Of a DNA stretch of 64,000 nt, positions 4,898 to 62,000 are shown one piece after another. The translations under genes were made by a program, and so were the position numbers. Positions within the stretch are counted from its first letter, which is position 1. Each line of letters opens with the position of its first letter. Source of the stretch: Octopus vulgaris (Eukaryota). The DNA lies in assembly GCA_951406725.2 (NCBI GenBank), contig OX597834.1, forward strand, positions 33,170,001 to 33,234,000, in the 5' to 3' direction. Below the pieces are notes generated by a model. The model saw only the letters and a program-made list of their open reading frames with translations. It did no database searches and had not been told where the DNA came from.

Positions 4898-4943
<46 letters not shown>

Positions 4944-6115
4944 CGCGTGGCTTAGTGGTTAGGGCATTACGCTCATGATCGTAAGGTCGTGAGTTCGATT
5001 CCCGGCTAGGCGTTGTGTCCTTAAGCAAGACACTTTATTTCACGTTGCTCCAGTCCACTCAACTGCCAAAAATGAGTACTACCTATATTTCAAAGGGCCA
5101 GCCTTATCACGCTCTGTGTCACGCTGAGAACTATGTTAAGGGTACACGTGTCTGTGGAGTGCTCAGCCACTTGTAAGAGCTGGGACCCTCGTCGTCGCAA
5201 CCGACGGAGTGCTCCTTTTCTAAATGTGTGTGTATATATACATATATATATATTCATGTAACGTAGCGGTTCAGCAAAAGGGATTGATGGAATAAACAAG
5301 TAGTGAAGTCAGACTATGCTACTAAAACCCTTTGTAACAGTGCCCCAGCATGGCCGTAACCCAATGACTGTAACAGGTTAAAAGTAAAGAATTAAAGAAA
5401 ATTTTGATGTCGTCGCCGCTTCATAGCCCCACGTGTGATCTAGTCAAGCAAACCTTATCAATAGGGACGTCCCAGTTATGACCACCTCGTCTTACTGTAT
5501 ATTGAGAACATTGTAGAAAGCACAATTCCGTTTTAAAGACATTTAATGACAGGCGGTGTGATGACAATCATATATTTTAGTTGGAAGATGGGCAAAGAAT
5601 TCAAGGGAGATAAACATGACTTTTCACTTGTTAATTGCAGGTAGAGTAAATTCCCTTGAAATAGTAGGAGTTACTTCCCTTGTAAGATTAGTATTTTAAA
5701 AAATAAATTTCTGTACCAATTCTCAAGATTGTTCTGCATTTCGTCCGGATTTTCTCTCTTTTTTATATTTATATAAATTTTTTTTTCTATTATTCTAGTT
5801 GATCAAAGGTGAACAGAGAAGACAAAGGATCTAGCAAGATCGTTAGAGCTTTGAACAAAATGCTTTGTGGCGTGTGTCCTTTTTTACGTTGTGAATTCAA
5901 ATTTCGTCGAGGTCAATTTTTGTCTTCATCTTCCTGGGATTCACAAAATAAAATAACAGCTAAGAAATGGGATCGGCAGCATCGACTAATCTCTTCCGCC
6001 ATTGCTGGCCTGATTCCTAAATTAGAGACCATTATATTCCTTCTAATATGCATTCATATAGTTTACATATGGCGTAATGGTTAAGAGCCCTGGTTCGATT
6101 TCAGGCAGTGACCTG

Positions 6116-6148
6116 AATAATAATAACAACAATAACAACAACAACAAC

Positions 6149-6210
<62 letters not shown>

Positions 6211-6263
6211 TAATAATAATAATAATAACAATAATAATAATAATAAAAACAATAATAATAATG

Positions 6264-6327
<64 letters not shown>

Positions 6328-6335
6328 TAATAATA

Positions 6336-6366
<31 letters not shown>
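6116..6366 (+). repeat. (AAT)n microsatellite, about 250 bp
   Basis: Read directly from the sequence. Confidence 0.97.
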
Positions 6367-6370
<4 letters not shown>

Positions 6371-6642: not shown

Positions 6643-7219
6643 TATATAATGGGAAGCTTTATGAAAATAGACAAAAGACGAAGGCAGGTGGGAAACAAAC
6701 AAACAATTGTATTAGTATGGCGCTCAGGAAATATAAATAAAACAAGTCTTTAACGTTTCGAGCCTACGCTCTTCAATAGAAAGATACACAGAGAGAAAAA
6801 AAACACAGAAAGAAGGAGAGAAAAAAAATGCGATGGGCTTCTTTCAGTTTCCGTCTACCAAATCCACTCACAAGACTTTGCTCGATCCGAGGCTATAGTA
6901 GAAGACACTGGCCCAAGTTGCCATGCAGTGGGATGAACCCGGAGACATTTGGCTGTTTAGGAAGCTTCTTACGACACACCCACGCCTGCGCCTATCTTAA
7001 ACATTCTGATATTAAGTATGCGAGGTGGGGGAACCGGATGTGTCTTTTCTGAGGAATAATTTTTTAAAATGTGAAACGGAAACCCCACCCCCACCCCCCG
7101 CCTTTCCTCTTTTTCCTGCACATCGAAAGCAGAGGAAGGAATGCATTTCCATTTTCATATTTCTCTCACAGCTAGGCTTTCTAATATTTGTAATTATTCC
7201 AGTCCCGATTCACGCTGTG

Positions 7220-31514: not shown

Positions 31515-31720
31515 GTTAATCCAAACATGAAAACACAAAGAGAAAACACAACAACGCGAGGACGTGGAACAAATATACCATTATTGGAAGCTCAGGAAGG
31601 AAGGGAAGAAGGAGGGTTTTACGTTTCGAGCAGAGCTCTTCGTCAGAAACATAGGAAAAGGAAAGATCCAGAGAAGGGAAGACGGAGGGGAAAAAATCGC
31701 CAACGGTACACATGAGGTCA
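31515..31720 (-). mobile_element. Penelope-like terminal-repeat remnant carrying a hammerhead. Same family at 10375-10590(+) and 22900-23092(+).
   Basis: Three diverged ~200-bp copies ending in TGTTTGGATTAAC. Two abut (TA)n, and each carries the hammerhead motif. Confidence 0.65.
31616..31650 (-). ncRNA. Minimal hammerhead motif with intact core
   Basis: GTTT-CTGACGA-A-GAGC(tct)GCTC-GAAA-CG-TA-AAAC. Confidence 0.7.
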
Positions 31721-35498: not shown

Positions 35499-35887
35499 GT
35501 GGAGGCGCAATGGCGTAGTGGTTTGGGCAGCGGACTCGCGGTCGTAGGATCGCGGTTTCGATTCCCAGACCGGGCGTTGTGAGTGTTTATTGAGCGAAAA
35601 CACCTAAAGCTCCACAAGACTCCGGCAGGGGATGGCGGTGATCCCTGCTGTACTCTTTCACCACAACTTTCTCTCACTCTTACTTCCTGTTTCTGTTGTA
35701 CCTGTATTTCAAAGGGCCGGCCTTGTCACTCTCTGTCACGCTGAATATCCCCGAGAACTACGTTAAGGGTACACGTGTTTGTGGAGTGCTCAGCCACTTA
35801 CATGTTAATTTCATGAGCAGGCTGTTCCGTTGATCGGATCAACCGGAACCCTCGTCGTCGAGACCGACGGAGTGCTTCCATCCATCC
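35499..35887 (+). mobile_element. Full-length tRNA-derived SINE, family B
   Basis: Pol III A/B boxes, (TCCA)n tail, 12-bp TSD ATACAGCAGGCT at 35487-35498 and 35888-35899. Confidence 0.9.
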
Positions 35888-39588: not shown

Positions 39589-39653
39589 TAGTTTTATTGA
39601 AGCATTGTGTGGAATAACTTTAAAGAAAACAGAACAAAGATGCAGTTTCATCT

Positions 39654-39779
39654 TGTATTTCTATATTTTGGGGTGCAGACCCCTTCTTCAGGACATTTGG
39701 TAAAAATGGTTGTTCAAAAAAGTCAATTTTTTCCAAATGTCCTGAAGAAGGGGTCTGCACCCCAAAATATAGAAATACA
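39654..39779. repeat. Perfect 47-bp inverted repeat with hammerhead-like cores
   Basis: 39654-39700 is the exact reverse complement of 39733-39779. Confidence 0.9.
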
Positions 39780-39872
39780 TGGTAAACCTGCCACTTTTTG
39801 TTTTGTTTTCTTTGTGTAGTTTACTTTGTACCTTCTTGCATTGTTCCAGCCTCAAACAACCACCTTCTTTAA

Positions 39873-45089: not shown

Positions 45090-45335
45090 TTTTAACTCAT
45101 GTCCATTGTCCAGGAATCTTTCGTCACACATCTGTGACCTCTTCAGCGACACTTTTCGTTTTCGTGTGTGTTCTTGCTCCACTTGCTCCATTCTGTTCTT
45201 GCAGATATTTGTCCCATCACTTTACATTCTGAATGGAATAAGTGGAGCAAGAGCACACACGATGATGGAAAGTGTCACTGAAGAGGTCACAGATGTGTGG
45301 TGAAAGATTTCCAGACAGTGGACATGAGTTAGAAT
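45090..45335. repeat. Inverted repeat with paired hammerhead-like cores upstream of exon 4
   Basis: Arms at about 45090-45197 and 45233-45335. Confidence 0.85.
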
Positions 45336-48460: not shown

Positions 48461-48880
48461 TATTTATAAAAGGAATTCCAACCTTGTCTGATTTTCACGT
48501 TTTATTTACAATCTTATAATGATATAACGTAAGATAATATAATATATTAAAATAAAATAGTAGAATGTTAAATGTTCATTCTGATTGAACTAGTACTTTC
48601 ATGCATTAAATTCTGCAATCTTCAGGTTCATTCAGTGATGTTTGGCCTCATGACTGGCACGAACTGATTAGATTTTGGGATTGATCTGATACCGGACAAT
48701 CTTCATGAACCTGAAGATTGCAGAATTTAATGCATGAAAGTACTAGTTCAATCAGAATGAACATTTAACATTCTACTATTTTATTTTATTCTATTATATT
48801 ATATTATCTTATATTATATCATTATAAGATTGTAAATAAAACGTGAAAATCAGACAAGGTTGGAATTCCTTTTATTAATA
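48461..48880. repeat. Inverted repeat B (about 170-bp arms, about 73-bp spacer)
   Basis: 48461-48631 versus 48705-48880, near-perfect. Confidence 0.92.
48706..48750 (+). ncRNA. Minimal type I hammerhead ribozyme motif (Penelope-like)
   Basis: TGAAC-CTGAAGA-T-TGCA(gaatttaa)TGCA-T-GAAA-GTAC-TA-GTTCA: 5-bp stem I, intact core, palindromic stem III (AGTACT). Predicted cut after 48745. Identical copy on the minus strand at 48586-48630. Confidence 0.75.
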
Positions 48881-59070: not shown

Positions 59071-62000
59071 TACCCTCTGTAAAGTGGTTGGCATTAAGAA
59101 GGGCATCCAGCTGTTGAAACCAAGCCAAATGGACATGAGATGATGATCAGAGCCTACTTAACACAGATGTATTGTTAGAACACCGTAATACTGCAGTATT
59201 CATCTTGAGAGAACACCTTATGTGCACAGAAATGTCAGAAGTAGATGAAATTTGTTCACAATTATGGTATTCTTACAAAACATCCATGTTAAATAGGATA
59301 TTAAGATTGTTATTTGGTGCTAAGATTGCTTCCACTGCTAATTATTAATTTTTACCCAGCCCACCAGTGCCTAATTAGTCAAGATATTTCTATATATTAT
59401 TAGCTGAAGCCAGGTTTGACCATCATACCTGCTGCTGACGAAGTACAAATATGCAGAAATCATGACAACGTTCACTGACTCCTGATGTTTCTGTACTTTT
59501 GAGTAGAAAACATTTGTATGAGATGCTCTCTCAGGATGGAGAATGCAGTTTCACAACATTCTTACAACACATCCACAATAAGTAAAATAATTTTTTAAAA
59601 AACTGACCTATATATATATATATCAATGTAAGATGCGGGGTTTTTTATGGCACTATGTATACTGAAAAGTTGTAAGTTTATTTTTCAAAGCATCAACATC
59701 ACAGAATCTCGCACAGACATTTTGAAAGAAGAAAAAATAATCTCTGTCGCTGTGACGGTGAAGATATTAACTTTTTTTAACAAGCAGTTTTATGAAGAGA
59801 GGAAGAGTTGCGTCCCTTAGATCAGCAAGCTAACACGCACACGCACACATTTGTCTATATCAAAGACGGGCTGTGTATAACGATATTGACCAGATTATTG
59901 GATGCTGTTACATATTGCTTGGCATTGTTTTAGCTTTCGAATGATGCCACACCACTGGCTGGACGAGCAGGCCATTGATTCCCTCTGATCGGAAAGCGAT
60001 TCTGTCGCAGGGTGACACGATTACAGCTGAGTGGACTGGAGTAATGTGTTGTTGAGCAAAAACACTTCATTTCACAAGGTGCTGCTTGATCTAGGAATTG
60101 AACCCACAATCTAGTGATCGTGAGTGCAACACCTTAACCACTAAGCTATGCGCCTTCACACACACACAAAACTCTGCCAGATCAGATTGGAGCCTGGCGC
60201 AGCCATCTGGTTCGCCAGTCCTCGGTCAAATTGTCAAACCCATGCTAGCATGGAAAGCGGACATTAAGTGATGATGATGATGAAAGACGGAAACTGAAAG
60301 AAGCCCATATATGTGTGTGTGATTGTCTCCCCAACATCGCTTGACAACAGATGCTGGTGTGTTTACATTCCCATAACTTAGTGGTTCGGCAAAAGAGACC
60401 AATAGAATAAGTACTAGGCTTACAAAGAATAAGTCCTGGGGTCGATCTACTCAACTAAAGACAGTGATCCAGCATGGCCATTCAAATGACAAACAAATAA
60501 AAGAATATATATATATATATCATTGTCATCATCATTTAATGTGTTTTCCATGCTGGCATGGGTGGAACAGTGGGACAAAATCAGACAAGCCAGAGGCTCC
60601 GACAGATTCTATCTCTGCTTTGATATGGTTTCTACAGCTGGGTGCCCTTCCTCACGCCAACCACTCAACAGGGTGGACCGAGTACACATTTGCATGGCAC
60701 CAGCACTGGTAAGGTCACCAGGAACCCGTAAGATAAGATCCCTCAACTGAGCAGGGTAACAGATTGGAGAAATGAGAAACTATGATGGAGGGAAAGGACC
60801 AAGTGTCTTGCTCAAGAGGTGAATACGTGGTTGGTAAGCAAGCTTCTGACCACACAGCCACATCTTGATGGCGTGCTCCTTACAGCAGTAAGAGTCTTTA
60901 ACCCTTATTTCTTGCAACCAGGGTGCTTAAGCAGACCCAGTCACAATTAGTGACAACAAACTTTTCTCTTTATTGCGCCTTAACTGTTTAAATTAAATTT
61001 GTGTGTGTGTGTGCATAATTCATTTTCTTATCACACACGACCAATTGTAATATGTCATAGATCAAAGCGACAAATCCTCTTAAACCTATTAAACACAATA
61101 GATGCCAGAAACGAGCATACTTTGGCCATATTTGCTGCCAGCTATTATTTAACATTATCAAATGTACAATTATGGCCCTTATGGACCCTAAGTATCTGAT
61201 GTATATGTCAGCATGAGAAAAAGAGAGAGTGTGTTTAGACAAAGAGCTGACAACATATGACAGTGAATGGCCCTTACCCAACCCCTACACCGTCTGCTGA
61301 CAATGGTGATGACAGTGACAAGTGTTTGTCAAGGAGGTCACCAGGGATTGTTGAAGTTGGGGGGGGGGGCCTCAAGTAGGAGGATATAACATCTGTCTTT
61401 AAGAAAGCTATGCAAGTTAACATTTTATTTTTTTGCATTATAATTCAAAGAACTCCGACCACCACAATATCAACCTACCCCTTCACTACACTATCCCCCC
61501 CCCCCGTCACATTACCATGACCCTGCAATGTATCTTTACTACACTAACCCTTTCGTTCTGCCCACCTCACTAGCTATATTAACCCCATGCTCTTAACCCC
61601 AAGATTCCAAGTTCGATTCCAGGCAGTGACCTGAATATCATCATCATCACCACCATCATCGTCATCGTGGAAAAATACCTTAGGAATGAGAACCCAGGTT
61701 TGAAATTTCCCCAAGACACCTGATGAAGGCTGTGGAGGATATATCAGCTGGAAAGTTGTCTTAACAATAAACAAGATGAGGACAAATATCCATCAAATGT
61801 AAATAATGTACATAGTTCCTCCTCTCTTAAATATGGAACTACAAAATATTTTGATAATTATTTGGGGGTTTTTTATGCCATTCCTAATAATATTTAATTA
61901 TAAAAGTACAATAGGACATCTTAAATATCTAATAGCTGTGAGGGTCCACCTGAATAAAATAGGTATCGAAGGGGTCCTTAGGCAAAAGAGAAAAATGATT

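Follow-up and report, generated by a model that had tools for sequence, protein, structure and literature searches.

We show, by comparing copies across the genome, that an element at position 61575 of a 64,000-nt stretch of Octopus vulgaris DNA (hereafter the window) is a decayed, 5'-inverted stub of the pseudo-LTR (pLTR) of an autonomous-type Penelope/Poseidon retrotransposon, an already known kind of element. One unit comprises, in order, a tRNA-like head, an (AAT)n tract, a start codon at family position +125, and a hammerhead and tail lying within the first 51 codons; after the tail come the rest of an 825-codon frame for a reverse transcriptase (RT) and a GIY-YIG endonuclease, a stop codon, about 35 nt, and the next head. 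We lean towards the view that the family was an autonomous element transcribed by RNA polymerase III (Pol III), whose internally primed cDNAs would have left SINE-like stubs.

An earlier note on this DNA, made from the letters alone, had taken the element for a Pol III SINE or retrozyme mobilised by a Penelope-type element (PLE). The motifs it named are all present: the B box (61611-61620, or 61611-61619 when the parts are delimited), a 16-mer common to two heads in the window (61621-61636), an inverted 10-mer (61589-61598) and the hammerhead (61715-61760 as first delimited, core 61720-61726). Set against the family, the copy has a short inverted piece (61584-61598, minus strand), the reverse complement of the head from about +17 to +31 (13/15 nt agree), with a 5-nt microhomology where it meets the forward copy. 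The A box was lost to this inversion, and many of the best genome matches have the same junction. On the plus strand lie the 3' half of the head with the B box inside (61594-61634; family +36 to about +76), a triplet tract (61635-61667) whose family equivalent is an (AAT/AAC)n spacer in the predicted 5' UTR, and the opening ~51 codons of the PLE's frame (61686-61840), where codon 6 has become a stop and a 2-nt insertion shifts the reading. The minimal type I hammerhead within this coding sequence (61715-61763, plus strand) agrees with the description of such motifs in PMC4209133 and is damaged: stem III is degraded, as had been claimed, the GAAA box is also changed and stem II carries a 2-nt insertion. 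A 3' hairpin and a tail of about 30 nt (61770-61840, plus strand) lie between two putative reverse-transcription start sites, and the element ends at 61840 without poly(A). Rfam and ARAGORN searches called neither a tRNA nor a hammerhead in it, and the copy is dead. The second head reported in the window is likewise there, as a head-only fragment of the same family (6066-6119, plus strand) with an A box (6070-6080), a 22-nt internal deletion, a B box (6093-6101) and the common 16-mer (6103-6118). It runs into an expanded (AAT)n tract (6116-6367, plus strand), after which no hammerhead follows. The two heads agree at 26/27 nt (E 1e-6, search within the window), and no target duplication was found for either copy.

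Other repeats in the window recall parts of this element. An inverted pair of a hammerhead-like motif at 48586-48760 is a pseudo-LTR stub of another family (a Neptune-type PLE family, L064 and L077, has this motif at its 3' end too), and an inverted pair at 45110-45310, with hammerhead core boxes on both strands, is probably another PLE stub. At 39650-39780 a short inverted repeat has a CUGAAGA core on each arm. Three further hammerhead-like cores lie at 31615-31650 (minus strand), 42121 and 59435 (both plus strand); the first recurs in locus L073 and the other two are alike. Two tRNA-headed SINE-like families with A and B boxes, at 4942-5100 and 35505-35700, are unrelated to the 61575 element beyond the head.

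A search of the 2.8-Gb genome with the 276-nt window element yielded 2,944 first-look candidates; the window is one of the 40 best places, and the rest of these share 83-87% identity with the query across the head, the triplet tract and the hammerhead. Exact patterns for the hammerhead and the B box (27-mer and 25-mer) matched 5,735 and 4,441 times genome-wide, while the reversed-pattern controls for both matched nowhere in the genome: the head-plus-hammerhead family is not chance. From hammerhead and B box the counts fall to 678 for the 5' leader and 552 for the ORF end, with patterns that differ in length and degeneracy. The hammerhead is present at 36/40 head-anchored loci, 35 times downstream on the same strand, so head and tail are linked across the genome, and the scenario that the note had named as fatal to its reading, a head unlinked to the tail in other copies, does not apply. 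Non-CpG divergence from the family majority averages 4-6%, and none of the 92 best-scored copies has an uninterrupted frame of more than 600 codons; for this reason we regard the family as apparently inactive in the assembly. Some loci of contig C1 that lie apart from one another have identical junctions (L240/L241, and L143-L147 with L224 and L225), apparently through segmental duplication.

The majority sequence computed over 92 loci has a single 825-codon frame that starts at +125 and runs through hammerhead and tail. Most of 30 leader-bearing loci run on into the GIY-YIG C-terminus, with the stop about 35 nt before the head. Among loci chosen by their RT sequence, 24/28 have a head or a head-plus-hammerhead unit downstream; conversely, at 16/30 loci chosen by the coding sequence of the N-terminus, a unit of like orientation immediately precedes that sequence, a partial tandem pLTR-ORF-pLTR arrangement, and four long copies have a 2.1-2.5-kb RT-plus-endonuclease region upstream of the unit. 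Contigs of four organisms bridge the junction between ORF end and head. Since the end of the frame adjoins the head, the unit lies upstream of the N-terminus and the frame starts inside it, the unit is the pseudo-LTR of the PLE. The tail had been seen as the borrowed end of a separate element. It does lie in the terminal repeat of an autonomous-type RT/GIY-YIG element, the match that the note had proposed looking for, but it is the first ~51 codons of that element's own frame. Length variants occur between family positions +205 and +270 (+9 in 36 segments, +18 in 5, unchanged in 77); the +9 and +18 variants keep the frame, yet they also equal the unit of a local tandem duplication.

The majority frame carries the DKG and YVDD motifs of a PLE-type reverse transcriptase in a single ORF. 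On a real fragment, RVT_1 scored E 1e-4, below the cut-off; the frame has 349 homologues, and those listed mostly carry PF00078 and/or PF26215. By alignment, the C-terminus is a GIY-YIG domain of the CCHH kind, with a CxC and two invariant histidines between and after degenerate GIY/YIG strands. A Pfam PF01541 search of the real fragment gave no match, and homologues 41-43% identical are labelled GIY-YIG. A protein homologue with 74% identity is named from Octopus sinensis, and a PDB search returned no match. Assignment to the Penelope/Poseidon clade is inferred from the layout, from the 27-39% identity to the Neptune-type families of this genome, and from linker motifs. Neptune-type loci were rejected as the partner: the 50 loci examined after searching the genome with Pfam GIY-YIG consisted of Neptune-type families plus a single host gene, and not one of the 50 has the 61575-type tail as its own end. 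The partner was located by following the 5' leader, not by the GIY-YIG search. The genome also holds a young Neptune-type PLE family (L061, L071, L073, L080) with copies about 98% identical, pseudo-LTRs and, in many copies, an open 781-codon frame; no standard hammerhead was found in it by pattern.

The family hammerhead has a 5-bp stem I, the core CUGANGA, a bulged base, a stem II of 5-6 bp and a palindromic stem III; the majority sequence folds with stems I and II. The consensus of the pLTR retains the core of a minimal type I hammerhead, and the one non-CpG core variant sits at the free N7 position. In segments of ORF-linked loci, 17/96 hammerheads are fully intact and 47/96 have both core boxes. 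Cleavage is predicted only for a dimer, with the cut falling after +194; when two majority hammerheads were folded freely, one run returned the dimer form and a second another intermolecular duplex.

What the note had proposed, a non-autonomous SINE or retrozyme moved by a PLE, survives in one part: a Penelope-like enzyme moves the unit. The other part fails, as head and tail are the PLE's own pseudo-LTR. The tRNA-derived head with A and B boxes is as in a SINE, but the unit is not a non-coding sequence distinct from the 5' parts of its partner (the head is in the PLE and the 3' half is coding), and its 3' ends are fixed, non-repetitive and at two sites, not an A-rich or simple-repeat tail. 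Nor is there any sign of a separate lineage of short copies with source genes of its own. In a comparison of 65 short with 107 ORF-linked segments, the non-CpG variants at +64, +163, +175, +232, +234 and +248 are about equally frequent in both, and no site separates the two sets among 26 tested (4 with P <0.04, two of these CpG); the sample is modest and limits the power of this comparison, and the short set includes best matches biased toward the window copy. One could envision that solo pseudo-LTR stubs with intact boxes were transcribed by Pol III and re-mobilised in trans, making up a self-propagating PLE-dependent SINE beside the autonomous element. Stubs do outnumber ORF-bearing insertions (9/82 reach the ORF), and they retain A and B boxes and have no T4 runs. 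We consider this improbable in view of the missing separating site and of the template requirement of Anolis Poseidon, whose template RNA needs about 55-60 nt past the RT start (PMC11167929), a stretch that the stubs lack. Far less probable still is a tandem circular-RNA retrozyme like Schistosoma SM-alpha, with rolling-circle copying of a 280-nt monomer. The Pol III-type head plus hammerhead and a few direct partial tandems (L014, L215) recall such an element, but the unit is PLE coding sequence, and 122 sampled insertions are dispersed singles, inverted (head-to-head) pairs or partial tandems, with no arrays of whole head-to-tail hammerhead monomers. The stub may carry an older name in SINE catalogues.

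Insertions of the pseudo-LTR bear the marks of PLE-style integration. Our sample, taken in order of position beginning at the start of contig C1, comprised 82 insertions. Left out of the analysis were L082, L084 and L091 (the same insertions as their neighbours), L241 (a duplicate of L240) and L171-172 (the query and its duplicate). An inverted piece, which had been likened to PLE 5' inversions in the window copy, is present in 61/82. Where two 3' ends are visible, the last 30 nt (the tail) are on one end in 48 insertions and on both in 3; an inverted 5'-truncated copy with a 30-40-bp tail on one end is a Penelope feature (PMC8557442). The 3' ends peak at +244 to +253 and at +278 to +289, about 30 nt apart, and two such peaks, together with two-strand priming from two internal starts, are also reported in PMC11167929. 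Target-site duplications, which the note had listed as worth counting, appear as 11-13-nt direct repeats around the whole pair in 20/82 insertions; a first test for direct repeats found runs of at least 8 nt in 26/83, against 1/83 mismatched pairs.

The case for Pol III begins with the head. Numbered from its first G, it has the conserved tRNA base at 14/14 tested positions, including T8, A14, G15, G18, T33 and the B box 53-61, and scores 63.5 against nine tRNA genes of the same genome, compared with a mean of 22.3 and a maximum of 37.5 for 834 other windows of the element. The best matches are Arg-TCG and Arg-TCT (49/73 nt) and Ala-TGC, with 47-49/73 over the arginine/alanine range; the parent tRNA is not fixed among the 9 distinct genes compared, which include no Arg-ACG. 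An ORF-linked copy at L201 (majority-strand 6660-6690) has a D-arm nearer to arginine tRNA than the majority has, and at L116 (138-2854) seven tRNA-Cys-like genes lie inside 3 kb. The A and B boxes that had been read from two damaged copies are present in the family majority, about 120 nt upstream of the start codon, and studied PLEs have their start site and an internal promoter in the pLTR. On balance we judge it more likely than not that the tRNA-derived boxes were the element's working promoter.

The distribution of 5' ends is consistent with such a promoter. In the position-ordered sample, 34/49 head-reaching insertions end 5' at -12 to +9, where the rate of truncation on the ORF side predicts 5%. 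A separate head-anchored sample gave 22/33, with five more ends in palindrome-extended alignments, so that in the two samples pooled 56/82 head-reaching insertions stop at the 5' end of the head. The ends are spread over -7 to +1, not on one base. Were the G at -6 the start, the A box would fall at nucleotide 14, the position that it has in rodent B2 and ID.

The sense strand of the element, 2,615 nt long, contains 13 runs of three Ts and no T4 run; combined with the tRNA-type promoter, this makes transcription by Pol III likely. Codon shuffles gave 2.9 T4 runs on average and none in 2.9% of cases (P 0.029). T4 runs per kb amount to 0.52 in 84 family loci, as against 2.66 in 78 related metagenome loci (2 of 80, with <500 nt covered, were dropped) and 4.71 in 28 Neptune-type loci of the same genome, an approximately five-fold depletion with respect to relatives. 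None of the 14 related loci with at least 1,500 nt covered has zero T4 runs; the 9/78 without any all have <1,200 nt covered, and one locus has 1 in 2,361 nt. In the family itself, T4 is present at one site in 10/85 copies. The test addresses one ancestral sequence, that is, one evolutionary event, with P from ~0.001 to 0.03 depending on the null. No A/B-box pattern was found near the 78 related metagenome loci, many of which are on short contigs. A sister Poseidon family without the head was not found either, all 50 loci from a distant-protein query being of the same family, so the genome offers no control.

Part of these observations would also be explained by a conventional Poseidon element under Pol II into whose pseudo-LTR a tRNA or SINE head had been captured, with the 5' pile-up due to a hairpin or to a coincident Pol II start and the absence of T4 due to chance. 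Leader and head form a hairpin of -14.5 kcal/mol, stronger than any other local structure within the scanned 1.4 kb, and it is located at the 5'-end step; as modelled, it could stall RT, join two cDNAs or bias 5' ends, and is a real confound. Perfect fold-back junctions at its loop (7 segments), the pLTR promoters of studied PLEs and a codon-shuffle P no lower than 0.029 also fit a Pol II element. Yet most head-stopping insertions are asymmetric, the partner arm ending elsewhere or being absent, so joining at the palindrome does not explain them, and the ends fall at the loop and 5' arm rather than at the 3' foot, where a stall would be expected. An ORF hairpin of -12.6, a single control, shows no comparable pile-up. 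A captured head would also have to reconcile A and B boxes that are intact, with exact tRNA spacing, with an acceptor stem that has decayed, and chance would have to cover the five-fold T4 depletion. We therefore regard Pol II transcription as the less likely, but by no means negligible, reading.

Two further results bear on the Pol III reading. Of 16 upstream pseudo-LTRs of near-full-length copies, not one has its first base at the predicted start: most are shorter, beginning downstream of it, and at least 2 extend past it (-60, -179). The simple start-site model does not predict this absence of a pile-up at -6, which tandem or circular templates could explain. Three RNA-seq runs from one study of a related organism (fragmented, unstranded) gave equal depth on both strands; 73-79% of the reads continue into unlike sequence, and there is no spot where many molecules start or end. 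This pattern fits passive read-through and is silent on Pol III and on cleavage.

We see somewhat less than an even chance that Pol III made the full coding transcript of this element, from a 2.6-kb coding strand purged of T4, and that the 5' end of its own RNA gave rise to thousands of SINE-like copies. We offer this fuller scheme, which would be new, with less assurance than the promoter itself. On the favoured reading, transcription by Pol III would begin in the upstream pseudo-LTR, some 6 nt ahead of the head; with no T4 run to stop it, the polymerase would cross the whole 2.6-kb unit and enter the following pseudo-LTR. The analogy of Anolis Poseidon suggests that the protein would nick both target strands 11-13 bp apart and that reverse transcription would be primed internally, near +250 and +280. 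If primed in the upstream repeat, it would copy only the 250-285 nt to the RNA 5' end and leave thousands of SINE-like stubs, while priming in the downstream repeat would give ORF-bearing copies; two cDNAs joined head to head would account for the inversions and the one-sided tail. An uncapped RNA would need an unusual route to translation. Kojima (PMC10886601) holds Pol III to be too weakly processive for autonomous elements.

The closest known system is Poseidon PAc of Anolis carolinensis (PMC11167929). It shares with the octopus element the pLTR-ORF-pLTR layout, an ORF that starts in the pLTR beside a hammerhead whose cut site is inside the ORF, two internal RT starts that define the tail (111-118 nt into the ORF), and cutting and extension of both target strands. 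It differs in that the parts of PMC11167929 drawn on here describe no tRNA-derived A/B boxes; in the octopus element the start codon is 34 nt before the hammerhead core, and the tRNA head and (AAT)n occupy the promoter position. The minimal type I hammerheads of metazoan PLEs, mostly single motifs from truncated elements, likewise have a short stem I, a bulged base before stem II, a palindromic stem III and a predicted dimer (PMC4209133); the octopus hammerhead is set apart from those described there by its link to a tRNA-type promoter. Small-RNA-derived Pol III promoters in terminal repeats characterise the TRIMp3 elements (Helenus, Ajax, Cassandra; PMC10886601), but these are short non-autonomous LTR elements, and the octopus element is a protein-coding PLE that, according to the same source, would be expected to need Pol II. 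Schistosoma SM-alpha and Sj-alpha (PMC6765202) also have a Pol III-type promoter followed by a hammerhead, SM-alpha being a short tandem SINE-like repeat, whereas the octopus unit forms the terminal repeat of an autonomous-type element together with the beginning of its ORF. A tRNA-like head is shared with the octopus SINEs OK, OR1 and OR2; OR2 is a CORE SINE, and the middle of the present unit is a triplet tract plus coding sequence. These tRNA-derived SINEs were reportedly described by Ohshima and Okada in 1994.

Our literature search, which covered few subscription journals and not Repbase, found no description of a PLE with a tRNA-derived promoter or of an autonomous retrotransposon transcribed by Pol III. 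By current understanding, the retroelements that Pol III drives are all short and non-autonomous, such as SINEs and TRIMp3. Even if Pol II drives the family, its insertions lend genome-wide support to the two-site internal priming, two-strand insertion model of Penelope elements, including the 11-13-bp duplications around head-to-head pairs, and warn annotators that some annotated "SINEs" are PLE pseudo-LTR stubs. If the Pol III reading is true, a 2.6-kb coding element under a tRNA promoter breaks the rule that Pol III serves short elements and raises the question of how an uncapped RNA is translated. A retroelement would then generate its own SINE-like family, and the end of a PLE would become a possible source of repeats that, like SM-alpha, combine a promoter with a hammerhead.
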